Shown: one piece after another, positions 8,372-51,921 of the stretch | How positions within the stretch are numbered: the stretch's first letter is position 1 | Layout: every line of letters starts with the position of its first letter | Source: Mytilus trossulus | Taxonomy: Eukaryota | Assembly: GCF_036588685.1 (NCBI RefSeq) | Contig: NC_086383.1 | Span: 20,708,001-20,772,000 of the forward strand | Direction of reading: 5' to 3' | DNA length: 64,000 bases | Notes under the pieces: generated by a model | Told to the model about the DNA's origin: nothing | What the model saw: the letters and a program-made list of their open reading frames with translations, nothing else | The model's database searches: none | Translations under genes and position numbers: made by a program

Positions 8372-11300
8372 GTAGGTTAAGATTTATACAAGAAGTGTTT
8401 CAGTTCATTATTTCATGTACACTGGTTGAATTCATGACACAGTTGTCCATTGATCTAATATAGATATGATGTTTTACGATCATGATATATTTTTTGAAAG
8501 ATACGCAGCGTAAAGTTAGGGTAATGGAAAGTAAAATCACTCAAAAAAATGAACTATAAGGAAATTTAAATTGGAAAGCCCCTTACTAATTGGCAAAAAT
8601 AAAAGCTCAAACACATCAAACGAATGTATAACAGCTGTCATATTCCTGACTTGATATTAAGATGTTTAGTTATGTTTGAAAATATCTGACAGTTATTCAG
8701 CTTATGTATTCTTCCTTATAGTCTAAAGGTAAAATCAAATATTGTTTTTTTTCTTAAGAAAATAAGAAGTCTTTTTTCCTCGGTTATACAATTAAATAGT
8801 CAATAAAGTTAACTGAACAATAAGCAGAGAAATCCATATTATAATTTGAAAATTAAAGTATATTGACAAAAAATTATCTTAACTGTTGTTAACAAGATTC
8901 CAAAATCAACCATAAGAAATGTGTATCTGACGCAAATGTTACTTTCATCAGTAAAGTAAAGTAATAAAATCAGACAGGGGGTAGCATCCGTCCATTTCCA
9001 TGCAATTACTTTCGTACATTCATAATGAAAATTTAACATTTGATTTGACAACTTGATGGTGAATTATTTCATTGCACTAAAACTAAGTTGAAATGCCGCG
9101 AAATCAATCAGCTGATATTTAGCAGCTGTTGTACATAAAAATTTAAAATATTTTTCCTTCAGATTTTAAACCCGATACAGAATGCCATTCCGATCGATTT
9201 AGAGAGAAGATTAACCGAAATGGAATATTCGTCACATACAGGTAAGTCAAATTACCTCATTTCAATATTGAGTGTTGCCTAATTTATTTTGATATTTACA
9301 AAATGAAAGCAGGTAGTGATTGTATGTGCACAATATTTCAACATCAAATTCATTTAGAAAACCTACTTAAATAGTGCTTTTATTGAATAATATACAATAT
9401 TAGTCTTTTAAAGCTGTAAAAATGTAGTTTGATTGACTTCAGAAAAAAGTGATGTTCAGCATAAACGATGGCAATAACACCACAAGTAAATAATTTCAAC
9501 TGTATACCTTAACAAAGACAGCACACATGTTATCATAGCCATGAATGTTAACTTGACCTTTGACTTGACTTATGGTTGTATATGACATTTAGCTCAGCGA
9601 AACTCACAGTAAGTCGTTTCTTTAGACAGGAAGTGACATTTTGCTCGTTGGATATTATTCTAAAACATTTTCTACATGAATACGCTGTTTTTTCAAATTT
9701 AAATTCAATAAGTTAAACTCACTACACCAACACATATAAAGTATAACTTAATAAAGACAACGGTTGCATACCGCTATTTAAAAGCCATATTTCGATGAAG
9801 CGATACACATCTGCATAACATACTTAAACCGAGGGAACACATCAACTATAAAAGGAAAACATTTCCGCGACAATCCTTACTTCAAGTAAGTGTAAACGTA
9901 GTTTATGCTGAGACTGTACGATCGTTGAGAATGTAATAAAATAATCAATAACGATAGTACAAAATCTGTATCAGGTCCACCAGGAGATTTGGATGATAAC
10001 AAGAAAAGATGGCTCGTGGTTGGAATAGGTTTGCATAGTATCTTATCGCCAGCCTTACGAAAGTATGTGGAGCCTGTTCTTACCAACTTCTACAAAGCAC
10101 TCAAGCTATCTGATCAAATCGACAAACAATCTCATCCGAGATATCTTCGGACAAATGGCGTCAGAAATGTGTACCTTAATTATGAAGCAATCAATATGAA
10201 TAAGACAACGCATGGTTATCGACAACAACTTTATGATTACAAGGTACAGAATGCTGTTGACTTGTCGAAGTTGTTCCTCCCGACACACATGACACATTAC
10301 TCAGCGTTTGATGAATCATGTGATTCATCGGCTTTGCTTGGCTTGATCGACAAAATAGACAAGTTTCCTGGAAATGTGCGAACGGCTGCAAACGATGTAA
10401 GTTCTCATATGTCGAAAATTATTTTAATATACTTAATTCGGACAATTAGAGTTTTTGGATGGATAATATGTAGATGTATATGAATAAACACTATAAAGCC
10501 ACTTGAGTTAAAAAATAAATAAAACAAAGGACACAATTTACGATATTTATATTGAGTATCTGTGCTATGGAAATACAACAAAGTATATTCCCCAAAAACG
10601 TTGTTAAGTCCCTTTACGAATAAAATGATGAAATTTCCTTTCGATGCTTCCTCTTACATTTTCTACCTTTTTAGTTAGTTATTAATACATTGATTTCTAT
10701 AAGTATTTATCCCAATCTTTTTTTTTTACAATCTTTCACCCAAATGTCACACTTAACTAAGATGACCGAAATGCTAATGAAAACTGTTAATCAGCATTAC
10801 TGTTGGATTGGCTCATCATGATGAAATTTGAAATATAAAGTGTAAATTTCAAATTTTGTGTTACAGTGTAACCTTACTATCAGGATACAAGATTTTGCTA
10901 GAAATTTTCTATATGTACATTCTTAGAAGTTTACAAATTCTAACACCAATTCACAAGTTTTAAAAGAAGATATGTCAGATTTAACGCTTACTAGATGTAA
11001 AATACGAAGTACTATTTACGTTTAAAACTATGTATACTCTACTTTCTATTGAATTATGACAAAGCAATTAATATGATATAAAAAAATCCTTAAATCTCAA
11101 GCGTAAAGTTCTAGTTAACGTCCAACAACTACATTTGTTAAACATTACTGTGCCCATTTCAACAATATATATTCGTTACATGAAGATTGGAATGTTGGCA
11201 ATAAAAAAATCTCATATTTTTCTAGACAATGCACATGCATCGCATGCATATACTCACCAAACAGATATCAATTTATATTACATGTGTACTTCAGGTCAGA

Positions 11301-14300: not shown

Positions 14301-17300
14301 AACATAGATATCAGAATTGACAATTTTTTAATTGCACCAAACGCCCGTTTCTTCCACAAAAGACCCACCAGTGACGCTCGAATTAAAAATATCCAAATAA
14401 AATTACGTAGTTAAAGAGCATTGAGGACCAAATTTTCATTAACATTATGCCGCATGCAATTAAGGTTACCTGTGCCCTAGTTCTTTAAAAAATAAAAAAA
14501 AAGTTTTGTAAACGGTCAATTTATAATTATGATCATACCAACGATAATTTATAATTATGACCATACCAACGATAATTCATGTCAATTCATAAATGCTGAA
14601 TACTAGGCTGGTGATACCCTTTGGGAATTAAGACCCGATCACCAGTGGGTATAAATAACCGTTACTCACTCTGTATATGTCAAATCACATTTTAAGTGTG
14701 AGTGCGTATTTAAAATTGTTTCTTTGACAAAGCTCGAATAGATAACCGCCTATTACTATACTGACTATGTTTATAAAAAGTCAGATAAGGATGCGATCAA
14801 ATAAATTTGCTCAACAGTTTATTTGTTAAGCAGTAAATTTTAATTGAAAATGATCTATCAGAGAAGGAAAATTTCTCTCTCAGATACTTTTACAGCGTTT
14901 CTTTCTTCCGAAATCAGTATTTTGGAATTAAAGTTAAGGAAGTACACCTCTCAGAAGACAAACATTTCTAGAATTGATTTTTTTTCCAAACCGGATTTTT
15001 GGGTTTATATGACTGTGAAACAAATAATTAGAGAAGAAAAAATCAGTTAATGGTGCACTTCATTTTTTGCTACGGCCATTTGAAAGTAACAAATTATGAT
15101 TAGTTTTCCATGTTTCATCAGTTCTACTTATTTTGGGGCTTTTATGGTGAAAAAACAAACCACAGTTCCACCATTCCCCCATCCTTTCAATTAAGACGAC
15201 GAAGACTAATCTGAACTAATTTAACTAATAAAAACTATAGTAGGTGTTAAAATAAGTAGTTTTGTCACATGTTGATGCTTTTTGTGTCAAATTTACAATG
15301 CTGTCAATTTTGTAAATTTGTGATTTTTCTCAGTTTTAAGAACAAAATCTAAGTTAGTTCAACCTATTTGTTATGAATTATTTAAAACATAAAGGTACCA
15401 GGATTATAATTTAATACGCAAGACGCGCGTTTCGTCTACATAAGACCCATCAGTGACACTCACATAAAAAAAGGTTATAAAGCAAAACAAGTACAAAGTT
15501 GAAGAGCATTAATGAGGACTCAAATTCCAAAAAGTTAAATCTATTACCGGGATAAAACAATCCTTAGTTTTTACCCAAAAAAATCAAAGATTTGCAAACA
15601 GGAAAGACATTTGAAAGTGATAAGGGACGTACATGATTTTGGTAAAATCATTTCTTGTGTTCTTTGTCCATTTTATAAAGAAACTGGGCTAAAAAGATTG
15701 ACTTGATTTGCAGTACAATTTGGACAAATTTATTACAAAACACATTCTTATTGTAGATACACTTTTTTTTACAAATTTGAGACTGATTATAACATTTAAA
15801 AAATTCGTTGATAGTTTCCACTTGTATCACATGTTTTGGAAATCATCCTCGAACAATATTTCAACAAGACTTAAACGTCAGAAGAATACATCCTTAAGCT
15901 TCCTACTTTTTTCTTTATCAAGAATTTGCTACAGATTGATGACGTCAAAGAAATATTTTTGGCAGAAAAATAAAATCAAACACCACATGCTTATAAATTG
16001 GTACGCTAAATTCACGTCTAGATGAGTCTCGTGATAACATGTACTTTGTATAAGATAATTCAAAGCTAGAAGATGTAGAATTGATAAAAGGTTGGGTCAA
16101 ATTTAAATGTATGCATAATGCTTATAGTGTCAGGAGTAGAAAAACCTTTAGTAATTTCAATACTTATTCATTTTATATACAATTCATTTAAATAAAATTT
16201 ATGATTTATTGCTACATTTATATTTATTGTCAGCACACAAAAGTGGACTATTTGGCTCATAAGACCTTTGAGGCCGGATTGTCCACCAACATTAGCACCC
16301 ACCAGTAGTCGTTACAACAGATACTATGTTTGTAATCTGTGCCGCATGACGCGTGTTTGGTTATACATGACTAACATGTGGCAGTCCAATCAAAGTTGAA
16401 GTTGAAGACAACTGACCGCCGAAAATTTCGAAACGAAGTCTCCATTCATTAGGCTAATCAATAACTAATCACAGCTAATAATCCTAATTTTCATTGACCA
16501 GATTCATAAAATCATACTACGTACAAGGATACCTTGGTAATCTCGAATATGACGCAAAGGTTCTTGGAAATGTCAAGTATATGTCGTCATGAAGTGCAGC
16601 TAAAATGCCTCTTTAATCTTTTCCAGAGAGTAGCTGTACAAGGAAACGCATTAAAGGAATATGGATCTTTATATGGTATGTTTCATCGCAAAACAACGAT
16701 CCTGCAATTAACTTTCTATTTCTTGAATATTAATACAGTTATGTTAAACATTGTTACGGTAAAAGATATTTGAGTTTTTGCAAACTGCTGAGTAGATTTC
16801 ATTACCAGTGCACTCTTCGCCACCGATGGCATTATCAGCATTAAGGTAAGAACTACTGTATTAACACGAGGTATTGTTGATGTGTTCTGTACACTCACTC
16901 TTCCAGCAACTGTTAATTTACCCGCAACAAAACAGTTTTTTGTGTTATCCATATCCATATCCATATGTCGTCTGTTTTTTTGTTTTGTTTAAATTATTTC
17001 GTTGTTGATGCTGTCGCGTAAAGTTTGAAAAGAGATTTCATTGAGAATACTCAGCATTTGACTGAGGACTAGAAATGTCGAATGTAGAATAAATTCTGAT
17101 AATTAAATACTACCACTTGATTGTTGTCACTGCTGGTTGACATATGTTTTCACATGGTTTTATAACTGAAGTAGTTTGAATTTGTGTGTTCACATACAAT
17201 ATCTTTAATGTTATCATGTTTTGTAGTTTTACTGTATAAAATACTGATATTGAAGTTAATAGGCCTAATTAATTTAATCTTCCAACTGTTTTGATTCGAC

Positions 17301-20300
17301 CGATTTCTTTTTTATTCTAAATGCACTAAGTTCAGGTCTAAAGGAAATATTTACCTTGTGTCTTCGTTTTTTATTATTCCAATCTCTTTTTTCTCTTTTC
17401 AGACTCTGATGTACACGAAATCAAGCTATGGAAGCAGGACAGTAAATATTTTATTAAAACAGACATAGTACCAGATATATTAAGAATATTAGAAGACAAG
17501 CATTGCGTGCTTCTGACTGGAGTTTCCGGAATAGGGAAAACACTGACCGCACAGAATATAGCATTGAAGTTATTACATGAATTTCAATATAGCATTGTGC
17601 CATGCGTGTCTCTTCACGATATTGCAACACGCTATAAAGAACATGTGCGTCAAGTATTTGTCGTCGATGATATATGTGGAAAATATATAGCAAATATCAA
17701 TATAATTGAAAACTGGAGAAACATTACGAATAGGGTAAAAAGTATTCTTGATAAGGGCATTACAAAAATATTGGCCACCTGTCGTACTGAGGTTTCAAAA
17801 GAAAAGATTTTTCAGCAAGCATTTGATTTATTCCATAAGAATGCGTACAATTTATCTGACAACTATTCATTAAAGGACAAATTAGTCATTGCTAGCAAAC
17901 ACCTTGAACATTATGACAAAATGTTACCAGACATTACAAATATTATTAACAAAAAAACGTTTTCCCCATTAATGTGCTTCCTATGCTCTAGACACAAAAA
18001 CTTTGATATCAATGAGTTTCTCAACAGTCCGTTCGATACATTTTGTAAAGAATGGGATGATTTGAAGTCCTTTGACAAAGAGAAATTTTGTGTTTTATTA
18101 CTATGTGTTATTCATAATGGAACAATTAATGATGACTTTTTTGATATTTCAAAAGATTTAGAAAAAGATGAAAAAAAGAAACTAAAAGACATTTTTGAAT
18201 GGTGCAGTTTAAACCGTGGCACATCTCGGTCAGCACTTCAATCCAAAATGAATGTCTGTATTGACACTTATTTTAGAAAAGTCAACAAGGAATTCAAAGT
18301 TTTACATGATAAAATGTTTGACTTTTTGTGTTCTTTCTTCGGGAAAACACTCCTCGACCCTATTCTCAAATATGCACATGATAAGGTCATATGCGAGCGT
18401 GTACAACTGGAGTCTTTACAGGAAGCACATGGATATTTTACAATTATGGTTTCGAAACATGATGAACACAAGTACAATGATAGGATAAAAGCTGACCTTG
18501 AAAACGGAAAGATACATTGGTGTTTGAACAATTCACAAATGAAATTTAAGGAATACAGGATTAAGATTCGAGATATCATAAAAGATTTAGAGATTAACTT
18601 AATAAGAAATTTGATCAACATCAAGGACGACAATGGGATTAACTCCTTCATTATTGCATGTTTACGTGGTTATGATGAACTTGTTGATTTTTTTATTTCT
18701 GTTGGAGCTGATGTTGACGGTCAGATTGGATTTTTCACACCATTAACAGCTGCGTGCCATGATGGACACTTGAAGACGGTTGAAATTCTACTTAAAGGAG
18801 GATCAAACATAGACAATGCTAATTCTCAAGGTGAAACACCACTGTATACTGCTTGTGTTGGAGGCCATTATAGTTTAGTACAACTGCTCATAGAAAAAGA
18901 TGCTGACATTAACAAACAAAATAAATATAGTCGCACACCTTTGTACACTTCGTGTATGTTGGATCATGCAACCATAGTTAGTCTTTTGATTGATAAAGGG
19001 GCGAATGTTTACCAATATAAGGATGTAATAATAGCTGCCACTCTAGGAGGAAACGATAAAATTGTCGAAAAACTAATTACAAATGACTGCTGTTTAAATA
19101 GTGTCGACATTGAAGGAAAAACCGCTTTATTCATTGCATGCGAAGAAGGTTATATTAAGATAGTAAAGTTGCTTATTGATAACAATGCTGACATTTATAA
19201 AGTTGATAGTCATGGCAATACGCCACTGCATGCCACGTGTTGCGCTGGAAACTATGATATAGTCAGTATGTTAATTTGCAAAGGTTCAGATATAAATATG
19301 ATCGATGTAGACTTAGAGACTCCTTTGCACAAAGCATGTAGGAAAGGCTCTCTAGGTGTAATACAAAAACTGTTGGATTTTGGGGCAGATATAAACAAGG
19401 CAAATGGAGATGTACACACTCCTGCACATATTGCAAAATCCGAGGGTGCAATTATGGATGAACACATTTTGAAATCTCTAGAGGAAAACAAAACAGAACC
19501 AACTGAACAGCAAAATTTAACAAATAGTAACAGAAAAATAGTTACCAACAATTTGATAAGGTTTGGGTGGACTCCTTTATATGAAGCTTGTATTAATGGA
19601 GACATAGAAACAGTCACATCACTCATCAGAAACAGAGCAAATGTGAACATGAAAACTGACTCTGGTGAAATGCCTTTGGTTGCTGTTTGTCAACAAGGCC
19701 ATGGGTTCTTATTACAAGTGTTGCTAGACAAGGGAGCTGACGTTGATGAAGCATTGTGTTGTGCTGTTCAGAAAGGTTACATTAGAACGATTAATATGCT
19801 TTTATATAAAGGCGGAGATGTTAGCTATAAAGGAGTTGATGGGAAATCCCTCTTGACATTGGCATGTGAACAAGGTTCAGTTGAGATAGTCAAAATTCTT
19901 TTAGGAAAAGGAGCCGATTTAAATGATGTAAATGGACAAACATTGATACACATTGTATGCAAAACAGATGATGATGATTTACTCAAGCTCTTACTAGATA
20001 TGGGTTTAGATCTGACCATACATGATGAAAACGGAAGATATCCACTTTTTGTGTCACTGGATAAGGGGTTTGATAATTTGTCAAAACATTTAATAAAACA
20101 AAGTTGTTCTATAGCAATATCAGAGAGAGACAAAAAAACAGCTTTGATATCAGCATTTGAAAGCGGAAATATGGAACTTTCAAAGTCACTTGTATTGAAC
20201 GGTTATGCAGAAAACTTATCGCAGTTTAATGAAATTATGTTATATCATGCGTGTAGGTTAGGACTGCGTGAAAACGTTGAGATTCTGCATAGAAATGGAA

Positions 20301-21547
20301 CTGATAATAAGACAATATATAAGTTTAAATATACTCTCATGATATTAGCAGACATTGGCGGAAATGATGATTTATCGGAGTATCTACAAAATTCAATCAC
20401 TTCCTCTCTCACAAATACGGAAAGACTGCGTATAGGAAGGCCAATTAATAATTATTGTTTAAGCTATGGTAATTATGAAGTTCAAATCCAAGCATGTATG
20501 AACGGAGAAATAAAATTGGAAAGGACCAAAAGAAACTTTTTTGATATATTCATCGAACAAAATGAATCTATTTGGTTTGAACAAACACCCTTATGTCTTG
20601 AAATTAGAAGGGGTCAATCGGATAGAGTTAAATTCCTAATAAAACATGGCGTAAATGTAAATTTGACTTTCGAAGATAGAAGTTTTGATGCCCCCTTTTT
20701 ATTGTTTTCCATGGCTGTTAAGTATGGATATACTCCGTTGTTTGCAGCATGTCAACGAAAATGTAATGAAATAGTTATTATGCTTTTGGAAAATGGAGCA
20801 AATGTAAACAAGGCGTTGTATGACGCATGCAGGGAAGGTTATTTGGACACTGTTCAATTTCTTCTACAAAAAGGAGCGGATGTTAATTCAATTGGTCGGT
20901 TTGGTCAGACAGCTTTGTATGCTGCTTGTATCGGCGGATACTCTACAATTGTAAAATATCTGATCGATCAAGGGTCTGTTATTGATACAAAAGTTAAATG
21001 CGAAAGATTTATTCACGAACCTACATGCCTACATGCTGCATATCAGAGAAATAATTATAAAACAGTACAACTTTTAATAAAGAGAGGGGCTTCTATTGAT
21101 ACGGTTGATAACTTTAATCGAACTATGCTAAATAAAGCGTGTTGGGACGGAAACTATAAAATTGTTGAAATACTTATGAATAAAGGGGTTGATATAAATG
21201 CCTCTGACTCGTATGGTGCTACACCTCTCGTATTAAGTGTATTACAAACAATTGAGGATAAACATGAAGAAAATGCCTATATTCGTGAAATGAGAAACGA
21301 TTATTCTTTTGATGTACATTTTTTTAATCAAGAGTATGTTACTGGATGGAATACATATAGTAAATTAGACTTCGAATCCAATATCAATAACCACTTTGAA
21401 GTGATTCAACTGCTTGTTGGAAACGGGGCCGATATTAATAAGGCTGATACGGAAGGCAGAACACCATTGTCATTAGCCAAGGAGATTGGGAATATGCAAC
21501 TAACTGAAATATTGTTACATAAAGTCCTTTTACAATGCAAAATGTGA
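8024..21547 (+). CDS. Multi-exon gene: DED-like + HEPN (RNEWAH) + coiled coil + nSTAND3-type NTPase + ~25 ankyrin repeats, ~1802 aa. Proposed join(8024..8371,9163..9241,9975..10396,11295..11463,12638..12834,16627..16675,17403..21547)
   Basis: All six introns are GT-AG with matching phases (0,1,0,1,0,1). The joined length is 5409 nt (1802 codons plus stop) with no internal stop. Walker A GVSGIGKT (17519-17542), Walker B VFVVDD, R-x4-H motif at 11310-11327, and ankyrin consensus TPLxxAC...G...V..LL..GA.VN repeated from ~18620 to ~21520. Confidence 0.8.
9163..9241 (+). CDS. Internal exon (ILNPIQNAIPIDLERRLTEMEYSSHT-G)
   Basis: Acceptor TTTTTCCTTCAG|, donor CAG|GTAAGT, open in phase 0 to 1; too short for the ORF track. 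Confidence 0.75.
9975..10396 (+). CDS. Exon encoding the N-terminal part of the HEPN-like domain
   Basis: ORF 9989-10483 (DDNKKRWLVVGIGLHS...FDESCDSSALLGL...AAND); donor GAT|GTAAGT at 10397. An alternative same-phase acceptor exists at 9984. Confidence 0.85.
11295..11463 (+). CDS. Exon with the HEPN catalytic motif (VRTTIRNEWAHCN...)
   Basis: Acceptor ACTTCAG|, donor G|GTAATT, phase 0 to 1; R-N-x3-H motif. Confidence 0.85.
12638..12834 (+). CDS. Exon encoding a coiled-coil linker
   Basis: Phase 1 acceptor (AAAG|, weak), donor AAT|GTAAGT at 12835; heptad-like LSQYDERISTLEN. Confidence 0.75.
13375..14060 (-). mobile_element. Penelope-like (Naiad/Chlamys-type) retroelement 3' fragment in intron 5
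   Basis: Minus-strand remnants IYPIEPEIKDT...SASYLD...KRDDFSFPIVNFP and LKSSLRKFYGRH, followed by a non-coding tail. Confidence 0.7.
14305..14650 (-). mobile_element. Degenerate retrozyme-like unit in intron 5
   Basis: Similar to 2590-2960; decayed hammerhead at ~14336-14377. Confidence 0.6.
15395..15602 (-). mobile_element. Retrozyme-like fragment in intron 5 with a near-intact hammerhead (15417-15458)
   Basis: Reverse complement TGTCA-CTGATGG-GTCT TATGT AGAC-GAAAC GCGC GTC-TTGCG; one core substitution. Confidence 0.7.
16627..16675 (+). CDS. 49-bp mini-exon (RVAVQGNALKEYGSLY-D)
   Basis: Acceptor CTTTTCCAG|, donor G|GTATGT. It supplies exactly the phase 0 to 1 change needed between the flanking exons. 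Confidence 0.65.
17403..21547 (+). CDS. Large terminal exon: nSTAND3-type NTPase plus ankyrin repeats
   Basis: Long polypyrimidine tract and AG at 17401-17402; the frame is open upstream of the ORF-track start (HEIKLWKQDSKYFIKT...). 1346-aa ORF with Walker A/B and ankyrin repeats; AATAAA at ~21703. Confidence 0.92.
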
Positions 21548-21780: not shown

Positions 21781-23060
21781 ATAAAATTGAGAATGAAAAT
21801 GGGGAATGTATCAAAGAGACAACAACCCGACCATAGAAAAAACAACAGCAGAAGGTCACCAACAGGTCTTCAATGTAACGAGAAATTCCCGCACCCGGAG
21901 GTGTCCTTCAGCTGGCCCCTAAACAAATATATACTAGTTCAGTGATAATGAACGCCATACTAATTTGTCATGCCAACAACTGTTTTTGAAAAAAATTGTT
22001 TAGCTCCGATGCAGAGACCCTATAAGTGAATCAATATTAGCGCCAAAATATGCAATCTTTAATGACCTCACAACAGTATCGTAACTACATGTATATCCGT
22101 TCTTAATAAGTCTATTTAAAGGTTTTGTTAGTTTCTGTGGTGAATACTGAAAGTTTTGTGCTTTATAAAGAATATTTCCATAAAATATTGGATGTGAAAT
22201 ACCTAAACGTATAAGCAGTCAGCATGTTGAGCTATATTTACGAATGATGTCCTTATACCGATGATACAATTTAGTAAATGTTTTGACTAGTTTGTGATAT
22301 CGAAAACCCTGGTGTAATAATTTTTCAGTAATACATAAATTTCTCTCGTTAAAATATTAAACATTGTTACATACACGAGCGAATCGTACAGATATATAAA
22401 CACCGTAAGATGGTGACAAGGGAACGTCACCATCTAAAAATGGATAATTAACGATAGGAAATGAAAAATCATCTCTTTTATCATAAATTTTAGTATTTAG
22501 CTTTCCGTTAGTGATATATGTATATATCAAGATCGAGGAAAGGGCAGTGGTCATTGTTGTATTAGCTTTATTTAAAATAAGTTCAACTGGATAAATTTCT
22601 TTAGTATACATACTGAAGTCGTCATTATTGAGAGCCAAAATGTCATCCAAATATCAAAAAGTATTATTAGATTTGTTTATAAGATGTTGTTTCCATGGGT
22701 CTTTGCTGATTATTGTCATAAATTATAGCAATACAAAAACAGGTCCGCAATAAGTGGTGCACAGTTAGTCCCCATTGGAATTCCGATAACCTGACGATAT
22801 ACGGAATCTCCAAAGCAAACAAAAACGTTATCTAGTTAAAATTCAAGGGCATATATATCAAAGCATGTCCAATTGCCATAGTTTTTTTTTTGTATTGCTA
22901 CTAAAAAATGACCTAAAAGAGTTTGAACATATATATTCACATTCTGACTTTTTAAATGCCCATTTGATTAGGTGGGTGAATTTTTCTTAATGAGAATGTG
23001 AGACAATGTGGTATACAGGGTTGAAAAAATCAAAACTTTGAACAGATTTGAAATCACCAA
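21781..23060 (-). mobile_element. Penelope-like (Naiad/Chlamys-type) RT pseudogene fragment with 3' tail
   Basis: YRQVIGIPMGTNCAPLIADLFLYCY, DDILALNN, and KIYDKRDDFSFPIVNYPFLDGDVPLSPSYGVYIS, with frameshifts. Confidence 0.8.
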
Positions 23061-25099: not shown

Positions 25100-26620
25100 A
25101 TAGTGTCCATTTAAAATATATGATAATTATGTTTAAAAAATTATCATTTTTTAGTTCTCCTGTGCTTTTAACTAACATAATGTTCTTTTCACCAAAGGAA
25201 TAATTTATTCCTATGTTTGATTTGATTAATATTTGTCGAAGATTTTTTTTTTATAAATAACTGTGATGTGCTGCAACTTCAGGGTTTCTATATTACTAAT
25301 TATAGAAACATGGCATTTTCCATTTGAAATTTTAATTTTTTAATCTTTCTTCAATATATAAAATAATATGCATGGGTCTCCATTGAAATTCTATTACTTT
25401 ATTTTCAAGTTTCAAATGTTTGAGTCCCGACCACATATTTTCCCAAGGTATAATTGTTTCAAAAATTTCCTCCCACTTAATTTGATATTTTGGAGATACA
25501 TCTTTATTTTAAACCGTACGAATATATTTGAGTTTTAACTTTGATGGTTGGATTGTTTTGATGTTCAAGTTAATGATCTCAAGGTCATTTGACATCTTTA
25601 ATTTACTTCGTAATGTAAATTCTAGTTTCCGCAAGAATTCAAAATTTACACGAAATCTTTAGGAATGGCCTGTTTAATTTTTTAAAATTCAGATATACAA
25701 TTTCTCCGATAAATTAGCTTCCTATAGAAAAAAAAGTACAGCTAATAAAATTTGTAGTTTCTGAATTCCAAATGTCCTGAATAGTTATGATATCACTTTT
25801 TAAAAAAGATGCGTAAAACAAAGGTTTATTTTTGAAACGAAAAGAAGAGTTTCCAAATATTCTCGTATTTAAAATGTCCTTTTTATTTGAAAATGTCACT
25901 TTTATTTGAAGCTGTACCAACATTTTGAATGAATCCTGCCCACGTATTTATAATTTTCTGATAAACTTTTTGGTTCACATCTAAACCAATTAAATTTGAA
26001 CACATACAAAAAAGGCATCATTATATTTTTCATCAAATTTCCGCAGTCAAGACTTACCGATCGCATTTTAGCTTTTTTATGGCTCCTGAATTGATTGATA
26101 TACAATTTTTGTTAGTTTACTTTTTATGAACGTATCTATACTTACCATTCCCATCCCCTTTTTTTATTTAATTCAAACTTTTCCGTCCCATATAAAATTA
26201 CAAGTTATATGATTTAGCTCTTTAGTATATTTATCTTGAATTCCTCGTATTTCGATCTCGTATCAACAGAGAGAAAGTATCATATTGTTCACTCTAACTG
26301 TTTTACCTGTAAATGTAAGCTTCCTACTTTTCCATACGTGTATACAATTTTTACCTTTTCTATCATTTTTCTCCAAATATCATCGCTATCATTTTAATAA
26401 CCATGACAAACCCTAATGTTTAAACATTGCCTGTGATCCATTTGATTATTATCAAATTTAAATCATTTTCTTTTAGAAGCCCCCAAAAGTAAGCCATTTG
26501 TTTTGTCAAACTATGGTTTGATAAATCTGTATTTGCTAATTTGTTTAAATAGCCTCAACAGTTTCAAATGCATTTAAAACTTTGGGGAAAAAATGCGTTA
26601 AATGTAATGATCGATTTTTA
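25100..26620 (-). mobile_element. Heavily degraded L1/Tx1-like ORF2 3' fragment
   Basis: Fragments such as IFGNSSFRFKNKPLFYASFLKSDIITIQDIWN and KWEEIFETIIPWENMW; many stops. Boundaries are approximate. Confidence 0.55.
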
Positions 26621-26634
26621 ACAAAACTTCAATC

Positions 26635-27210
26635 ATTGAAATACTAAGGCTTTTCTTCCTCTTGAGTAGATTTACTTGAGCTGTTTTTGGCAAAACCTTT
26701 GGGAATTTTTGGTCCTCAAAGCTCTTCAACTTCGTACCTTTTTTGGCCTTTTTACATTTTTATTCGAGCGTAACTGGTGAGTCTTATGTAAACGAAACAC
26801 GCGTCTGGCGTTAATATAACATATCAATCCTGGTATCTATGATTAGTTTATTTACAACCACTGGGTTGATGCCACTGCTGGTAGATATTTATTTCCCCCC
26901 CGCGGGTTTCACAAGCCCAGTAGTCAGCACTTCGGTGTTGACTTTAGTAATCATTGATATGTTCATAATTATAAATTAACTGTTAAATTTCTTTTGAATT
27001 ATTGAAATACTAAGGATTTTCTTCTTTAGGAATAGATTACCTTAGCTGTATTTGGCCAAACTTTTAGAAATGTTTGGTCCTCAATGCTCTTCAACTTCGT
27101 ACTTTTAACATTTTTATATTCGAGCGTCACTGATGAGTCTTTTGTAGACGAAACGCGCGTCTGGCGTTTATATAAAATTTCAATCCTGGTATCTATGATA
27201 AGTTTATTTA
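26635..27210 (+). mobile_element. Tandem retrozyme-like repeat, 356-bp period, two hammerheads (26769-26810 mutated, 27125-27166 intact)
   Basis: Direct repeat of TTGAAATACTAAGG...TCCTGGTATCTATGAT, with hammerhead cores 356 bp apart. Confidence 0.85.
27125..27166 (+). ncRNA. Minimal type I hammerhead ribozyme (intact core)
   Basis: Stem I CGUCA/UGGCG, core CUGAUGA, stem II GUCU-UUUGU-AGAC, GAAAC, palindromic GCGC loop III, and GUC cleavage triplet (cut after 27161). Confidence 0.88.
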
Positions 27211-27693
27211 ATAGCATTCAAGATTTTCATTTTGGGGAAAATGCTTCTAAAATAAGGAACTTTTTTTGGCCCCCTCTTCAAATGACTTAATATTCAATCC
27301 ATCATTACTATTTGCGATTATTTGGTTGCCTAGCAACGGGTTTTATAAATGAACCATAATATCAATCTGTAATTCAAGTGCCCTAGAAAAATACTTCTAA
27401 CTATATTAAAATGAAAGGTAACGTGTTACCAAACACTAGAATATTTATTATTGTTACATCTTTACTTTTGAGAAGTTTTAAATAGCAACCTAGCAACCAC
27501 AATATTGCCTATTGATCACAAAAACGGACCATGTTATCCGAAAAAAAAAGAAAAAAGAAAATGGTTTCATAAAACTTATATTAAATCGACTCCTATATTA
27601 GTTTATTTAGTAACCATGTTTGCATTAAATAACAATTTGACTTTGTATCTGTATAACCCTTCATATCAACTCGAGATTTCCTAAGCAACGTAA

Positions 27694-32375: not shown

Positions 32376-34302
32376 AAGTCTTACTGAATATTCTATCACA
32401 GGATATGTAACAAAGGACAGGGGGACAACGTATAGGCACGATGGCAATCAATGCAAATATGAAACCAGTTTAAAGGGACCAGTTTGATGATATAACTTTA
32501 AATGTATGTTATCTATTTATCTTATGTTTGTTTGTTGTAACTTTAAGTTTGTCCGATTGGTTATCGTCTTTAACATATTTTACAATTAAAACAAAAGGCA
32601 ATTATTTAATTTAAATATTTCAAATATTGTACAGTGTATTGAGACTTAAGATGAGCTTTACTTGTAAGTTCGTAGACATATTATATATTTTTTCGTTTAT
32701 AGTCTTAATGTATCATTTCTTTTTTTTATGAATTAAACTCATAATAGTAATGTATATTGAATGAAATCAAGAAATAGAATCTGTAATCGTTCATAAGAAA
32801 CGATTTTATTATGTTTAAGTCAGTCTTTCAGTTAGTAGTAGGTGTAATAAAGGATTATTTTGACAATTTCCAGTTCAATTAATTTGATTCGATTTAAAAG
32901 CTTTCTTCTTATTCAATAATTGAATGTTGGACTATTAATTGAATAATTTAAAGGACACATTATAACGGACATCAAAAAATACATGGGGAGCACTTTAATT
33001 TCAAAGTCTCGTGAAACATCAATTATAACAAAACAATGAATGCGTTTTAGTTACTGAAATGACTGAGTTTTACTATAAACACGTTTACATAAGGTTTCCT
33101 TTGAAAGAACATCTTTGATTCTGTCAAAATCTTGTTATACTGCTTATAAATAATTGTCGTTCGTAACTCTGTTCGACGACATGTATTCCTTATACAGATA
33201 CCTTAACCATGACGATAAAAGAGACAGAAAAATTATTGAAATTATCAATTGTACCAATATCCAGTATTATTTTTGCAAATGTTTACATAACTTTTTTTTG
33301 CGTAGAAAAGTATTTTTACAGTAATATTTTCCATTAATCAACTTTTTTAATGCATAATTTTATAAGATTTTTACCCAATTTTATAGTATTTCATGTTTCA
33401 TAGTTAAAACACATCTTTTTTAAAATAAGAATTATTTATATTTTAAGCTACTTGTTCCATTTTGATATAACTTTTATGAGATTATTTACCACTTTAAATA
33501 GTATATTTTTGTATATATTTTGGTTTTAAGGATCAGTGTCTCATAAGTCATTTTTGTTTGGCTGGATATTGATAGTTGTTTGTATGTATATGAATATTGT
33601 GTGAATGCCTTGTTTCAATGAAGATGTGACAATATAATAAACAATTTTATTCTATTCTTATTCATAACAACTCTCGTAAGAAATTAAAGAAAAATCATGT
33701 TTTTTGTGTGAATTATATGTCATCGTTATATTCAGTGAAACATTCATACGAGGATAGTAAAACACAAACTTGGGAGTCTTTGATTTATGGCTTTTCTCTC
33801 AATGTCCATCACCCCTTGAAGCAAAAGTCTTGATATCCAAATCCCTTCGGAAGGTGATTAGGTTGAAATCTCGCAAAGAAATATTGACCCCATTTCAATA
33901 ATGCGCCTGTCTTAAGTCAGATGCCGATACCTTGTATGCGTGTCTTGTATTTGTATATTTAACAATGACACTCAATTGTGCGTTTTTTTAATTTTTTTTA
34001 TTGTTGTTAGATATACTAACCATGAGATATTGAATATTGATTTGGCATAATTTTGCCCCAAGATGTCTTTTTTTTTGTATTTTTTTTACTTTGGATTGAT
34101 GTCTCATATAAGTTAACCCCTTTTCGAAAGAAGTATTATGTTAACGTCGTTACAAAACTTTGAGTTTTTGAAAAACTAAGGCTTTTCTACTTCAGGAATA
34201 GATTGCCTTAGCTGTATTCGGCAAAACTTTTATGAATTTTTGGTCCACAATGCTCTTCAACTTCGTACCTTATTAGACCCTTAAAACATTTTTTTATTCG
34301 AA

Positions 34303-34344
34303 CGTCACTGATGAGCCTTTTTGAGACGAAACGCGCGTTTGGCG
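34303..34344 (+). ncRNA. Hammerhead ribozyme motif in a retrozyme fragment (~34155-34385)
   Basis: CGTCA-CTGATGA-GCCT TTTTG AGAC-GAAAC GCGC GTT-TGGCG; one stem II mismatch, GUU triplet. Confidence 0.65.
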
Positions 34345-34677
34345 TAATCATAGAATTTTAATCCAGATATCTATGATGATTTTATTCATAAAGTTAATGT
34401 CCATTGTAGATAATAACACAAAAATCAGATTCATTGAATTTTGAAAAAAAGTACATTTTCATAGTACGAAAAAAAATCATTAATTAGATATAAGAATATT
34501 TGGTATGAGTGCCAATGAGACGTCTCTCCATTACTGTCACACTTATTGAAAGTAAACCACTACATTTAAGGTATAGGTACTGTTTTAAACCCAGAACCAT
34601 TAAACATGTGTTACGAGATATAATGGACATTTTGTCAATATCAAAGCCTTTTTTTTTATCTTGTATGCAGGTATTTA

Positions 34678-37600
34678 ATGAGTCTTGGTAAGTTGGATGG
34701 TATTTTCAAGAAGAAATCAAACGATATATTTTCAAAAAAAGTCATCGACGTATTTGAGAACAAATCAGACAACGATATACTAGCACATAAAAGTGGCGGC
34801 ATAGATGTCTTTGAGACGAAAGAAGATATCTTTGAAAACCCAGGCTATCAAGCTAACATTTTCCCCGGAGACAAGGAGACAGAATATCATGAACCAACAG
34901 TAAAAGATAAACCACTTCAGGTAAATATACTTACTAGAATAAACCCCTTCATGTGTATGTACTTTCTAGAATAAACCCCTTCAGGTGTATGTACTTACTA
35001 GAATAAAACCATTCAGGTGTATGTACTTACTAGAATAAACCCCTTCAGGTGTATGTACTTACTAGAATAAACCCCTTCAGATATATGTACTTACTAGAAT
35101 AAACCCCTTCAGGTGTATGTACCTACTAGAATAAACCCCTTCATGTGTATGTACTTACTAGAATAAACCCCTACAGGCATATGTACTAATTAGAATAAAC
35201 CACTTCAGGTATATGTACTTACTAGAATTAACCCCTCCAGGTGCATTTACTAATTAGAATAAACCACTTCAGGTGTATGTACTTACTAGAATAAACCCCT
35301 TCGGGTGTATGTACTTACAAGAATTAACCCCTTCAGATATATGTACTTACTAGAATTAACCCCTCCAGGTGCATGTACTTATTAGAATAAACCTCTTCAG
35401 GTGTATGTACTTACTAGAATAAACCTCTTCAGGTGTATGTACTTACTAGAATAAACCTCTTCAGGTGTATGTACTTACTAGAATAAACTACTCCAGGCAG
35501 GGTTTCCGCTGGCGCCATTTTCGCAATTTGCGAAAAAAATAATAATTGTATCGATAAAAATTCGTCATTTGCGAAAGAATATGGCGAAAGAAATGTATAG
35601 AACGATTTATTTTCCTCCATCTTGTTTATTTACTTTTTTCGAGTTTCTCGGACTTTACCCGATCAGACAATACTCGGAAATCACCTTGACCTCATTAACG
35701 TCTGGACAGAAAATGAATAATCAGCTGATTACATTTTATTTCTATCGACAACAAAGGACTATATTAATAAAGGTGTTGATTGAATTGTTTGACAAAATGA
35801 TATGGTTAAATGGCTTCTGCTAAATGTCACATATAGTATTTATTTACCACTTTGCGACGCACGTGTTTGAAGCAAACTTTTGACTTCTCCTCTGCTTTTA
35901 AAGATAGTTTAGAAAAGAAAGCTGTTGTTGTGACGAAAAATGTCCAAAAGCTTGAAACACGTGCGTCACTCAAACGACTTTAAAAACGTCTTCCTAATCA
36001 ATTACCGATATTTAAGTCAAAGGATAATTAAAGTTTTAAAGTTTTAAATCCGAGATTTTTCTTGCTTTTGGACATTTTTCGTCACAACAACAGCTTCAAA
36101 CACGTGCGTCGCAAAGTGGTAAATAAATTCTATATCGATAGAAATAAAATGTAATCAGCTGATTATTTATTTTCTGTCCAGACGTTAATGAGGTCAAGGT
36201 CATTTCCGAGTATTGTCTGATCGGGTAAAGTCCGAGAAACTCGAAAAAAGTAAATAAACAAGATGGAGGAAAATTAATCGTTCTATATATTTCTTTCGCC
36301 AAATTCTTTCGCAAATGACGATTTTTTATCGCCACAATTATTATTTTTTTCGCAAATTGCGAAAATGGCGACCGCCAGCGGAAACCCTGCCTGAGTAGTT
36401 TATTCTAGTAAGTACACACACCTGAAGAGGTTTATTCTAATTAGTACATGCACCTGGAGGGGTTAATTCTAGTAAGTACATATATCTGAAGGGGTTAATT
36501 CTAGTAAGTACATACACCCGAAGGGGTTTATTCTAGTAAGTTCATATACCTGGAGTCAGGGTTTCCCCATGGTCTATTATTTTTTTCGCCACCTCTTTCG
36601 CCAAAACAATATATTTTTCGCCACATTATTATTTTTTTCGCCAAATAACATAACTATATTTTTTGTTTAAAATTTTTATTTTTTTCTACCACCCCCCCCC
36701 CCCCCTTCCCCCTTTCACTTAAATAAGATGATTTTGCCCATTGTGTCTATGATTATGCTTTCAAACTTATTTTTTAATTTAAAAGGGAAAACTATTCATT
36801 GCATTTTAAACAACTTTTCTAATTGATTGGGCCACTATACTTTTAATAATAAAGAATATATACGTCCTGGAATATAACAAATTATTGGACATGTTTTGAT
36901 AATATAATACCAGTATATTTCGTAGGGAAAGTTTCTTTAAAAGAAAAATACTGATGTTCCCTTTCGTACTAAGAAGGTTTTTTTACAACGATTAGAATAA
37001 ACCACTCCAGGTATATGTACTTACTAGAATAATCCCCATCAGGTGTATGAACTAATTAGAATAAACCACTTTGAGTATATGTACGGTAGCCTATAATTGT
37101 TAATGTCTGTGTCATATTGGTCTCTTGTGGACAGTTTTGTCATTGGTAATTATACCACATCTTCTTTTTAATATTACCAGAATAAAACCCTTCAGGTATT
37201 TGTACTTACTTAAACAAACTACTCAATGTATATGTACTCACTAGATTTGACTGTTTAGGTGTGTTGTTTCGATTGATATCTTATACTGAGTATATGCTGG
37301 AGACAGGACCTGTTTGTACGGAAGCCGGTAAGTGTCAGGGTAGAGTTTTATTTTTAAGTTGATATAACGACTTAGCTAACGTGGTTTAACAACTTAGCTA
37401 ACGTGGTTTAACAACTTAGCTAAGTTGTTTTAACGACTTAGCATATTTATCTTGTTTAACAACTTGGCTAACTTGTTATAACGACTTAGCTTACTTGTTT
37501 AAACAACTTAGCTAACTCGTTTAAACAACTTAGCTTACTCGTTAAAACGACTTAGGTTACTTGTTATAACGGCTTAGCTGATTTAACTCGTTATAACAAC

Positions 37601-38280
37601 TAAGCTAACTCGTTATTACGACTTAGCTAAGTCGTTTAAACAACTAAGCTATCTCGTTAAAACAACTTAGCTAGGTCGTTATAACGAGTTACCTAAGTTG
37701 TTATAACGAGTTTAATTAGCTTATTAGTTAAAACAAGTTAGCTTAATTGTTTAAATAAGTAAGCTAAGTTGTTTTAACAAGTTAGCTAAGTCGTTTACAC
37801 AAGTAAGCTAAGTCGTTATAACAAGTTAGCTAAGTTTTTATAACAAGATAAATATGTTAAGTCGATATAACAACTTAGATAAGTCGCTATAACGACTTAA
37901 ATATAAAACTCCACCCTGACACTAACCGGCTTCCGTACATTTCCGTTGAACTTCAGATCACCCCAATTTTTGGCATGGGGTTCGTGTTTTGTCAGTATTT
38001 AGTTTGTTCTGTGACCTAAACTTGTTATTTTCTGTGTCATCTGGGCTCGTGTTGAAAGTTGTCTCATTGACAATTATACCTATATCTTCTTATTTTGTAT
38101 TTATTCTTACAGGTTGCAGATATACTATGCCATGGGAAATTCCGAAAGAACAGATGTCATGCCAAGGTCATACAGAGGACGCTTGAACTTTATATGAAAG
38201 GAGAAGATAAAAACTTAAAAAAGAAACTGACTGCAGTTAAACCAAAGAGAGTGACAATTAAGGATGATTTAGTGAGGTAG
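34678..38280 (+). CDS. Putative small two-exon orphan gene, join(34678..34920,38113..38280), 136 aa
   Basis: Acceptor TTGTATGCAG| at 34670, ATG 34678, donor CAG|GTAAAT (phase 0), acceptor TTCTTACAG| at 38112 (phase 0), stop TAG. Repeated D[IV]F motifs followed by a basic C-terminus. No recognised family. Confidence 0.5.
34909..35497 (+). repeat. 32-bp minisatellite (TTCAGGTGTATGTACTTACTAGAATAAACCCC), ~18 units
   Basis: Direct tandem repeats; inverted units at 36390-36556 and more units at ~36991-37250. Confidence 0.95.
35498..36990. mobile_element. Rearranged hAT-like non-autonomous element ends (CAGGGTTTCC termini) forming a foldback
   Basis: CAGGGTTTCC at 35498, its inverse ending at 36389, and again at 36557. 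Each end abuts ACTCCAGG/CCTGGAGT (candidate 8-bp TSD; clearest in copy 2). Subterminal TTCGCC/TTCGCA repeats. Confidence 0.6.
37319..37935. mobile_element. MITE with TA flanks and internal ~21-bp tandem repeats in two inverted halves
   Basis: TA|CGGAAGCCGGTAAGTGTCAGGGTAGAGTTTTAT ... ATAAAACTCCACCCTGACACTAACCGGCTTCCG|TA; internal AACAACTTAGCTAACTTGTT-like units. Confidence 0.85.
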
Positions 38281-38906: not shown

Positions 38907-39692
38907 TTAAATTCCTAAATTTTTAGTTACTGTTAGACGTTCACTGATGTTATCTTTGACATATCCGTCCTTAGCCCGATCTGATTTCCAGCGACCATGT
39001 TTTTTGAAGATTCTATCTTCCACATGCGCATTTGCAGCAGCAGTGGCGCCTCCGGACCTCAAACTATGCAAACCAAAATACTTTTTGTCTAAACCAATAG
39101 ATGTTAAAGTAGATAACAGAATGTCTCTTGCAGTAGTATAAGAAAGCTTACCATTTCTTAATTTGTAACCATTTACAGATTTACAAAAAGAAAAAGGACG
39201 AAAAATCAAATCATTACTGTCCGACTTGATGTTTGCTAAATCTAAATATTTCATCAACATTTTAACGGGACATGTAATTTTGTCCGTTTTTGAAATGAGT
39301 ACATCTCTACCCTCACGGTAAATATCAGTTTTACTACTATCTATCAGTAAACTGATGTACGAATCATGAAAAACAATATTATTTCTTGTCAGATTTGCTA
39401 ATTCTGAATACCTCAAAAATCCAGCAAAACTTATAAGGCACATACATGCTATTCTAACATCTTTCAGATTAGATTTATCGTTACCATAAAGCATAAAGAT
39501 TTGATACAAAATTTCTGGTGTTATAGGTTCTTTCTTAACCACAATGTGTCCAATAGATCTCAAAGATCCTTCCTTCACAGAAATAACCAAATCCGATTTA
39601 CACGGATTTTCAACTCCGGCTAATCTATGAGCCCAACTTATAGCATAAAAAGCTTCATTTATGCTGCTAGTAGATTTACCAATATAAGTCAA
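38907..39692 (-). CDS. Tyrosine recombinase catalytic domain (copy 1); the N-terminal extension to ~39925 is frameshifted
   Basis: GFLRYSE (R), SKTD (K), HSLRSGGAT (HxxR), HGRWKS...GY (H, Y). Confidence 0.88.
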   Translation of the reverse strand: MTYIGKSTSSINEAFYAISWAHRLAGVENPCKSDLVISVKEGSLRSIGHIVVKKEPITPEILYQIFMLYGNDKSNLKDVRIACMCLISFAGFLRYSELANLTRNNIVFHDSYISLLIDSSKTDIYREGRDVLISKTDKITCPVKMLMKYLDLANIKSDSNDLIFRPFSFCKSVNGYKLRNGKLSYTTARDILLSTLTSIGLDKKYFGLHSLRSGGATAAANAHVEDRIFKKHGRWKSDRAKDGYVKDNISERLTVTKNLGI

Positions 39693-40184
39693 ATAAACTA
39701 AATACGATGCGACAGAAATAACTGAAGCAGGTAACGTGTTTGAAAAATTAATAGATAAACACTACTTACAAAAAGCGTTGAAAACATATCTATACTGTCG
39801 TTGAGTGTTAGCTGCTCTAGATGACAAACAAAGGAAGGTATCTGGTCTACCAGGTGCTGCATGGCTGGAGATTGAGACTGACGAAAAGAACCAATATCAT
39901 TCCATCTTCTGGTTTTGAAAACATCTGAAAAATGTGTTACCCAATCAAGGAGAATTAAACAAGTATTCATATAAATTATTATAATAAAATGCATATGACA
40001 TTAAACAATCAACCATGCCTACTACAATATCATACTACAACATATGATACTAGGGCCATGTCGCTAAACATACTTCATCTTTACATTCTCCACTGAGTAA
40101 TATGTACAAAGTAAAATCTCATTCACCATGTCTCTGCAATACCAAAATTGATATCAGGACCATGTCATTGTGAAACATCACAGA

Positions 40185-42130: not shown

Positions 42131-42160
42131 TCGTCAAGTTCGTCGTTATTGCATTCAAAG

Positions 42161-42263
42161 CACAGGCACTTGTCTCAGAATTTTTTTCCCTATATACCTT
42201 ATTATAACACTGTGTTATAATAAGGTATATAGGGAAAAAAAAATTCGGAGACAAGTGCCTGTG
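42161..42263. mobile_element. 103-bp fully palindromic MITE with an 8-bp TSD (ATTCAAAG), inserted in the 5' part of pol
   Basis: ATTCAAAG|CACAGGCACTTGTCTC...GAGACAAGTGCCTGTG|ATTCAAAG; ~50-bp arms with a 1-nt loop. Confidence 0.85.
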
Positions 42264-42322
42264 ATTCAAAGCTAGAAGATAATAAACTTATATCTAGATA
42301 CTTATCATTAACAGTAACTGTA

Positions 42323-43105
42323 TCATTGCTGTTTGGATGGCTGGTAACTAGGTGAAGAAGCTGTGGCTGACTTGAAGTTGAGTGGGCAGTTTCTTTTCCA
42401 GTGACCATACTGCTTGCAGTAGTGACAGATGTCCATGGGGCACGGCTCACGCCGTGCAGTGCTGGTACGAAAGGGCTGTTGATATCGACTGAAGTCGTAA
42501 GCTGGAGGAGGAGCAGTGGCAGTAGCGATACTCCCAACTGCTGGAGAAGGTCTAGCTGTATACGGCTGTGGGCGGGTCTTTTTCTCCTTAATAGTTTTGA
42601 GGGCTCTAGTCTCAGCCTGGCGAATCTTTTTCTCGTCCTCGTCATTTTCAGCGATATCGTTACTTTCATATTCTCTAACCGTAGCCCATCCCCCAGTGGA
42701 GTTATCAGCGACCCTGATGAGTTTGTTTCTTTCTTTAAGTTTACATACCAAATCACCAGTAATAGAAGAAAAGGGAGAAGCAACAGATACGAGATCCTTG
42801 TGGATTTTGTTAAGGCCATCCAAAATGTTCTCATTAAATCGAAACTGAATACGGTTCCCTTCTGATTTGAACTTAATATTAGCCTCATCTCTGAATTTCT
42901 TAGATAAATTGTCTTGTTCTGACAGAATGTCGGACTTCAAATCAACAAGTTTCTTATCCAAATAGTCTTTAAAAAGGCCAAAAGTGTCTACTAAGTCACG
43001 GTTTTGATTAGCTTGTGAATTTGAAGCATTAAGACGTTCGGGTTGACCATGTAAGGGGTCCCTTAACAAATCTTCTTCATTCAGATCGAGCACTGGTTCG
43101 GACAT
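42323..43105 (-). CDS. gag of the YR retrotransposon, copy 1
   Basis: ATG at 43105 (MSEPVLD); FKSEGNRIQFRFN, LKERNKLIRVAD..GGWATVREY, and CHYCKQYGHWKRNC zinc knuckle. Confidence 0.85.
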   Translation of the reverse strand: MSEPVLDLNEEDLLRDPLHGQPERLNASNSQANQNRDLVDTFGLFKDYLDKKLVDLKSDILSEQDNLSKKFRDEANIKFKSEGNRIQFRFNENILDGLNKIHKDLVSVASPFSSITGDLVCKLKERNKLIRVADNSTGGWATVREYESNDIAENDEDEKKIRQAETRALKTIKEKKTRPQPYTARPSPAVGSIATATAPPPAYDFSRYQQPFRTSTARREPCPMDICHYCKQYGHWKRNCPLNFKSATASSPSYQPSKQQ

Positions 43106-43507: not shown

Positions 43508-43549
43508 CGTCACTGATGAGCCTTTTTGAGACGAAACGTGCGTCTGGCG
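43508..43549 (+). ncRNA. Hammerhead ribozyme motif (segmental copy 2)
   Basis: CGTCA-CTGATGA-GCCT TTTTG AGAC-GAAAC GTGC GTC-TGGCG. Confidence 0.65.
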
Positions 43550-51866: not shown

Positions 51867-51921
51867 CACAGCCACTTGTCTCAGAATTTTTTCCCTAAAA
51901 TTTCGGAGACAAGTGCCTGTG
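51867..51921. mobile_element. Shorter (55-bp) version of the palindromic MITE, same TSD
   Basis: Same termini and ATTCAAAG flanks; the hairpin tip is absent. Confidence 0.8.

Follow-up and report, generated by a model that had tools for sequence, protein, structure and literature searches.

An old retrozyme insertion in the mussel Mytilus trossulus and a stem-loop shared with Naiad elements as a likely signal for reverse transcription

Features of the locus

The window analysed here is the whole 64,000-nt stretch of Mytilus trossulus contig NC_086383.1 (positions 20,708,001 to 20,772,000), and coordinates given without a locus name refer to it. It contains a 593-bp insertion with two hammerhead ribozyme (HHR) motifs, one damaged (HHR1) and one intact (HHR2), together with fragments of Penelope-like elements (PLEs) (Table 1). 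Sequence comparison confirmed the earlier assignment of the insertion to the published mussel-type non-LTR retrozymes, as judged from its type I HHR, its 356-nt unit of 35% GC (metazoan non-LTR retrozymes having short tandem units of 150-450 bp with a GC under 45-50%), its lack of coding capacity and the 14,466 copies of its ribozyme core in the genome.

Further retrozyme copies or fragments, belonging to families 1 and 2 and including one that is very decayed, lie on the minus strand at 2587-3029, 14303-14648, 15393-15536 and about 16050-16312, and the copy at 2587-3029 has the same 3' end. A single 235-bp retrozyme insertion with identical flanks occurs three times (34152-34386, 43357-43591 and 53013-53247, all +) as it lies in a block of 9.2-9.7 kb whose tandem repeats are about 97-98% identical. 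Two DIRS-like retrotransposons lie in this repeated block (38907-43189 and 48601-52847, minus strand), with matches to a zinc knuckle, reverse transcriptase (RT), RNase H, a Dam-like methyltransferase and a tyrosine recombinase; this combination identifies the large RT ORFs of the window as DIRS-like and not as PLEs, and they were rejected as a partner of the retrozyme. A single 1401-aa open frame (17342-21547, +) encodes an nSTAND3 NTPase with numerous ankyrin repeats, an arrangement like that of innate-immune STAND receptors. Satellites are present as a 196-bp repeat (26 copies, 54627-59681) and as 32-bp and 22-bp minisatellites (34907-35488 and 37355-37899).

Table 1. Retrozyme and Naiad features located in the window
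Feature	Position	Strand	Basis
Whole retrozyme insertion, 593 bp, about 1.6 units	26618..27210	+	mapped by blastn onto a natural two-unit reference
HHR1, damaged type I hammerhead	26768..26811	+	motif comparison; predicted cut after 26805
Cut-to-cut monomer (would-be circle), 356 nt, 35% GC	26806..27161	+	family spacing 363-370 bp
Predicted bulged stem-loop common to retrozyme and Naiad 5' UTR	26854..26923	+	covariance model R1, 54.2 bits, E 8.8e-12; pair table, folds
Predicted small UUCG hairpin after the shared element, outside the Naiad match	26924..26941	+	this monomer and a family-2 unit folded as circles
HHR2, intact type I hammerhead of canonical geometry	27124..27167	+	Rfam RF00163, 32.5 bits; 12/12 helix pairs form; predicted cut after 27161
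Tail from cut site to fixed 3' end, 49 nt	27162..27210	+	29/30 loci end 42-54 nt past the cut site
Left flank resembling right flank (about 27206-27267); may be a long, decayed target-site duplication	26545..26619		flank comparison
Naiad terminal (pLTR) fragment, stops 6 nt before the shared element	8528..8656	-	blastn to L156 3543-3671
Broken RT fragment, second Naiad-type PLE family	22195..23039	-	tblastn, 39-41% aa identity to L156 RT

One intact and one damaged hammerhead ribozyme

The HHR1 core (CUGGUGA) begins at 26774 and the HHR2 core (CUGAUGA) at 27130, which places the two motifs 356 bp apart, as the first-pass annotation, made from the letters alone, had stated. Its description of the second motif as perfect also held: HHR2 has all six pairs of helix I, four of helix II and two of helix III, and helix III with its loop forms an 8-nt palindrome. 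The altered core and the stem II mismatch described for the first motif were both seen, along with a mismatch in helix I and a broken loop III palindrome. The core change in HHR1 replaces A6 with G, and A6 of the hammerhead core is needed for catalysis. The cut-site half of HHR1 (GUC, then the 3' strand of helix I) is intact and able to pair with the catalytic half of unit 2 over 6/6 positions of helix I and 7/8 of helix III, so that unit 2 might release a monomer by cutting the site in unit 1. The covariance check proposed earlier came out in favour of HHR2 only in part: its match to Rfam RF00163 (32.5 bits, E 3.4e-4) falls slightly short of the gathering score of 34, and HHR1 was absent among the 25 Rfam matches at E<=10.

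The consulted part of Cervera and de la Pena 2014 (PMC4209133) describes a canonical metazoan HHR as having a helix I of 6 bp, a helix II of 4 bp and a helix III of 1-2 bp with a palindromic loop, whereas minimal HHRs have no helix III, a helix II of 7-8 bp, a helix I of 4-5 bp and an unpaired base before helix II. By this definition HHR2, with helices of 6, 4 and 2 bp, is a canonical type I HHR with an intact core, and the earlier label of a minimal hammerhead has to be dropped. HHR2 does share its type I topology and palindromic helix III region with the minimal PLE hammerheads treated there, but it has neither their missing helix III nor their long helix II nor their extra base. The earlier statement that such ribozymes depend on dimers is likewise at odds with the consulted sections of PMC7229834, in which a cloned mussel HHR monomer cleaves alone at about 0.1/min and the RNA in tissues is mostly circular. 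The mussel HHRs reported in those sections are without most of the conserved loop 1-loop 2 contact bases.

Extent and age of the insertion

Mapping by blastn to a natural two-unit stretch (locus L033) places the start of the insertion at unit position 175 and its end at position 49 past the cut site, which moves the start from the earlier 26635 to near 26618. The 5' end is thus of the variable type, and the 3' end is typical of the family. The tail closes in a T-rich run, at the point where the shared element described below would begin. The two copies around the motifs (227 and 217 bp) are 82.8% identical (E 2e-62), and the 356-bp spacing results from 9-10 nt missing in unit 2, the family spacing being 363-370 bp. 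As such, the earlier wording of a tandem 356-bp retrozyme is right for the presence of two motif-bearing copies and for their spacing here, and has to be amended to about 1.6 units, short of a full tandem, of a family unit of about 365 bp. No ORF of at least 100 aa overlaps the insertion in the ORF list, in agreement with its earlier description as non-coding and absent from the ORF track. A reading as an LTR-type element, with two 227-bp LTRs around a spacer, was ruled out: the 5' ends vary, so the repeat-spacer-repeat appearance is that of a partial tandem.

The two units of the window copy share only four sites that differ from the family majority, versus 8 and 19 private ones, which weakly supports a single copying event for both units. 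Their closeness is 0.865 within the locus versus 0.855 to units of other loci, and this slight margin, taken with the few shared differences, indicates that the copy is old. By its sequence, the window copy is an old, decayed retrozyme insertion, ordinary as a locus, and it is likely dead or weak, as HHR1 and the inner stems of the shared element are damaged.

The likeness of the two flanks of the window copy has p = 0.002 against random window pairs and p = 0.03 against the flanks of other insertions, with 2 of 37 loci at p<0.05, which is the chance level. Exact or long target-site duplications were rejected as a feature of the family: no signal was found in the 37 insertions, where the mean exact repeat was 4.7 nt versus 4.5 nt in controls.

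Retrozyme families and their transcription

Across the searched genome (1.30 Gb, 541 contigs), a 32-nt core pattern with one position W had 14,466 exact matches versus 0 for the reversed control. Together with the 82.8% identity of the two window copies, this shows that the motifs are not due to chance. The 356-bp unit as a query returned 6125 candidates, of which 40 were scored; apart from the self-match of the window they were 81-88% identical, with many in arrays. The family thus occurs both as arrays and as solo copies. In ten arrays the HHR spacing was 363-370 bp or multiples of this, and among 103 units from 35 loci, units were closer within a locus than between loci in 18 of the 22 multi-unit loci. 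Arrays of dozens of units exist, and one of them (L031) has alternating variants, a sign of DNA-level duplication. A third family, reached via L156 1659-1707, has 349-352-bp units and a different hammerhead but the same shared element. More than 60 family-2 units, spaced 355 bp apart, form an array near a contig end (C1:269295-292329).

The retrozyme family is transcribed, and the reads that fall on the window copy come mainly from other copies. Over 26300-27500, three RNA runs gave 1878, 2382 and 1451 reads at 90% likeness, many of them of family-2 type, and 93-98% of these reads run on into unlike sequence; at a likeness of at least 99%, only 14, 35 and 16 reads remained, and no read in the three runs covered 26546-26627. 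No pile-up of read ends was found at the cut site in these short reads, to which a circle and a tandem transcript look alike, and a joint in the RNA reads from 27167 to 26857 fits both equally.

A fixed 3' end beyond the cut site

A 72-nt HHR query ending at +29 was used to find where inserted copies end. Among the best 30 of 40 scored loci (700 candidates), 29 end 42-54 nt past the cut site and not at the cut site itself; leaving out the window and one duplicated locus, the count is 27 of 28. The 5' ends of the same 30 loci vary between unit positions 10 and 330. A spacer query gave 23 independent loci, 11 with their end at +42 to +54 and 12 with it elsewhere, and in family 3 the copies stop before the element in 14 of the 21 loci inspected by eye from a set of 25. 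One fixed and one ragged end in the dispersed copies is, as a sequence pattern, a mark of reverse transcription. The cut site is not the end of any of the 30 central copies, which argues against a cleaved linear monomer, copied from its 3' end, as the usual template. In a set picked partly by the spacer query, 16 of 37 two-ended insertions exceed 413 bp and thus span two cut sites.

An intact Naiad element and its terminus

A search for GIY-YIG endonucleases, in which 150 of 615 candidates were scored, returned many open frames of 1056 aa, and 16 loci were fetched; PLE ORFs with the endonuclease first (EN-first) and last (EN-last) were both present among them. The L156 ORF is EN-first, 1011 aa long from its first Met and free of stops, with an N-terminal GIY-YIG, CxC, DKA and YIDD; its RT domain matches RVT_1 only at E 0.045, with YIDD present. 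Its N-terminus is, by eye, nearly that of Naiad_Mgal in the consulted supplement of PMC8557442. On these features L156 is an intact Naiad PLE. It stands in a tandem of 4276 bp with copies 99.95% identical, and a search for a relaxed HHR core inside the L156 element found none. Intact PLE ORFs of the order RT then GIY-YIG (831-911 aa) are also present in the genome.

The stretch that resembles the retrozyme lies upstream of the L156 start codon (element 3677-3760, ATG at 3769), ending 8 nt before it, and Naiad copies break off at its start. In the first 30 loci with a pLTR 21-mer, the end falls within -5 to +3 nt of the element start in 23 and 8-22 nt earlier in 7, and no copy runs through. The 21-mer just upstream of the Naiad element has 3,924 exact matches versus 56 for the 20-mer at the element start. 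Loci that do contain the element have the pLTR end directly upstream in 30/30 cases and the ORF-start motif downstream in 27/30. Naiad RNA depth in four runs falls from about 100-240-fold to about 1-fold at the element start, with loose read ends piled at L156 3672-3677, and the few reads that cover the element and the ORF are mostly of one orientation.

The PLE fragments noted earlier in the window are indeed there and are Naiad-type pieces, comprising the two in Table 1 and a further RT fragment found with tblastn at 13719-14046. Loci of the second Naiad-type family carry an N-terminal GIY-YIG.

A stem-loop shared by three retrozyme families and Naiad

The resemblance covers retrozyme positions +49 to +115 and corresponds to a predicted 65-nt stem-loop that lies directly past the point where inserted copies end. 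Families 1, 2 and 3 and Naiad, folded separately, give the same outer stems of 7 and 6 bp, with z-scores of -1.9 to -4.1. The window copy folds more weakly (z -1.7), with its outer 7-bp stem intact and its inner stems broken. The two outer stems keep all of their 13 pairs in Naiad and in each of the three retrozyme families. Naiad differs from family 1 at 9 of 26 paired positions, in three pairs on both sides, and no pair is broken; the chance of this is about 1e-4 if any change is allowed and about 0.03 if only transitions are. All nine differences are transitions and the comparison covers four lineages in one genome, which makes the covariation modest. In 14 retrozyme copies picked by regular expression, 99% of cells pair and only 1 of 22 pairs changes on both sides. 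Because the joint MAFFT alignment misplaced an extra Naiad hairpin, the pairs were read from an anchored comparison and a model built from retrozymes only. Taken together, the paired changes suggest an RNA fold.

That covariance model (R1) had 10 matches in 271 kb, namely four Naiad 5' UTRs and six retrozyme copies or fragments. The Naiad matches (L156 twice, L158 and L160) score 26.5-26.6 bits (E 3e-4). R1 had no match beside canonical PLE ORFs at the loci tested, where the sampled 5' ends of other PLE families may be truncated, and none at the ORF start of the second Naiad-type family (L277-L282), whose 5' end may also be truncated; the match in L278 is a retrozyme copy. Outside the element, blastn of Naiad against the retrozyme unit found no further similarity. 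A core pattern of the element has 8,983 exact matches in the genome. The stem-loop is likely an RT recognition or initiation element, and the earlier suggestion that PLEs mobilise the family can be graded likely on the basis of this shared stem-loop and the end that the retrozyme has in common with Naiad. In the family-2 element of L103, the apical stem and part of the element's own hammerhead are complementary and may act as a switch; the predicted optimal circle fold does not contain this pairing.

Comparison with known elements

The M. galloprovincialis retrozyme described in the consulted part of Cervera and de la Pena 2020 (PMC7229834) has the same type I HHR, low-GC tandem units of 350-390 bp and more than one ribozyme family, and it likewise co-occurs with PLEs and has no LTR, PBS or PPT. 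That paper reports about 5000 HHRs in two families, while we find a third family and count 14,466 exact matches to a single core pattern. It proposes a general link between PLEs and retrozymes, and its main text, as consulted, names no partner and no fixed 3' end. According to a 2020 review (PMC7761336), no conserved motif in metazoan retrozymes points to the retrotransposon that they use.

Naiad_Mgal and Naiad_Mcor (Craig et al. 2021, PMC8557442, in the sections consulted) form 5'-truncated partial tandems with a fixed end, as the retrozyme does, and the 65-85-nt element and its place relative to the terminus are alike in Naiad and retrozyme. Naiads differ in being autonomous and without canonical HHRs, and their element has an extra 22-nt hairpin.

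The closest biochemical precedent is the Anolis PLE Poseidon (Frangieh et al. 2024, PMC11167929, in the part consulted), whose genomic copies end at a fixed site downstream of the HHR cut, at an AC-rich stem-loop, much like the copies here. Poseidon starts internally, downstream of its HHR, with genomic ends that match the start sites; its binding region reaches 3' of the start, as we propose for the stem-loop, and uncut RNA is its main substrate. Poseidon differs in that it is autonomous, carries an HHR in its own pLTR, belongs to a different clade and was studied in vitro, whereas the Naiad case is inferred. The Xenopus retrozymes of Li et al. (bioRxiv 10.64898/2026.07.22.740005) are also non-autonomous and share terminal sequence with PLE partners, but there the shared part is the HHR-bearing pLTR, whereas the partner proposed here has no HHR; in the part of the preprint consulted, no mollusc is sampled and no Naiad partner, structured signal or fixed end is described. 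The repeat itself is already known; a Naiad-retrozyme link or a fixed end was not found in the openly accessible literature searched, which for PMC7229834 and the 2026 preprint was the main text.

Proposed mechanism and alternative explanations

We interpret the window copy as an old, 5'-truncated retrozyme insertion of about 1.6 units, from a family in which copies break off about 48 nt beyond the cut site, immediately ahead of a stem-loop that likely recruits the Naiad RT and sets its start; we put the probability of this reading at roughly 0.7. Tandem retrozyme copies are transcribed, as the family reads attest. Hammerheads would cut out monomers of 350-370 nt that are ligated into circles, as reported by others for a mussel clone and extended here to the family. 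A Naiad protein would then bind the stem-loop, nick the target DNA and begin cDNA synthesis immediately 5' of the stem-loop, a step that we infer from the shared ends and the Poseidon precedent. As the first base copied would lie upstream of the signal, a cDNA would have to extend more than part of the way round a circle, or along an uncut multimer, to regain it, and this rule would account for the fixed 3' end, the ragged 5' ends and the partial tandems. Long arrays would then likely have been enlarged at the DNA level. We lean slightly towards the circle, as opposed to the uncut multimer, as the template.

An alternative would be that the shared stretch is an internal promoter or an element for translation or RNA stability, with the fixed end arising simply where a linear transcript stops in the T-rich run and is then reverse-transcribed by ordinary target priming. 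A T-rich run does end both retrozyme and Naiad, and the position of the Naiad element 8 nt before the start codon is one where a promoter or translation signal could sit. Nevertheless, tandem copies have to be read through that same run, the 16 of 37 insertions longer than 413 bp span two cut sites, the retrozyme has no ORF to translate and the paired changes point to an RNA fold, which together make this explanation unlikely. Somewhat less probable still is movement by an HHR-bearing canonical PLE or a LINE, with the Naiad-like stretch as an ancestral relic. Intact canonical PLE ORFs of 831-911 aa exist in the genome, and the Xenopus retrozymes resemble the pLTRs of annotated PLEs in the part of that preprint consulted; however, R1 had no match in the canonical-PLE ORF flanks of the loci tested, and a relic would not be expected to be kept in three families that differ in their other sequence and in their ribozymes, nor at both termini.

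The first reading of the locus, in which minimal, dimer-only hammerheads at the window copy itself produce a 356-nt circle, now appears very improbable. In its favour are the palindromic helix III, the pairing of the unit 2 catalytic half with the unit 1 cut-site half (6/6 and 7/8), which might release a monomer, and the co-folding of two HHR2 copies, which is 8.4 kcal/mol better than folding alone, although the fold obtained is not the active one. Against this reading stand the canonical geometry by PMC4209133 and the monomer cleavage in PMC7229834 (both consulted in part), an active HHR2 fold 7.4 kcal/mol above the predicted optimum in context, and, for a circle from this locus, the zero reads over 26546-26627 and the small counts at a likeness of at least 99%. 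Spread by DNA-level mechanisms only, with the hammerhead as a passenger of a satellite, suits the arrays of dozens of units and the alternating variants of L031, but for the dispersed copies it is contradicted by one fixed end and one ragged one, and we consider it scarcely credible as a general account.

Returning to the stem-loop as the start signal of a Naiad RT, a broader proposal, which we judge a little better than evenly balanced, is that mussel retrozymes are circular-RNA parasites of the ribozyme-less Naiad that have in common with it only the folded RT-start signal, located downstream of the first copied base, with hammerhead circles letting the cDNA regain that signal. This would separate two jobs, ribozyme and RT signal, that other PLEs keep in one pLTR. 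If true, an invertebrate retrozyme would for the first time have a named RT partner and cis-signal, the Naiad clade would have its first defined initiation element, and a portable tag of 65 nt would be available for copying circular RNA by target priming. A structured element that retrozyme and Naiad both have at their common terminus names a candidate enzyme and a small, mutable RNA, which makes it testable what moves animal retrozymes and how Naiad-type RTs choose their template and start site.

Two further kinds of repeat touch on these elements. A tandem family with units of 548-552 bp and a different hammerhead-like core lies beside EN-last PLE ORFs (L163 380-1476 and L171 7882-8434); it has no match to R1 and may be a retrozyme that uses a different partner. 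At C12:27544243-27545048, the start of the Naiad element occurs seven times at intervals of 131 bp, which may represent a very small non-autonomous Naiad derivative.
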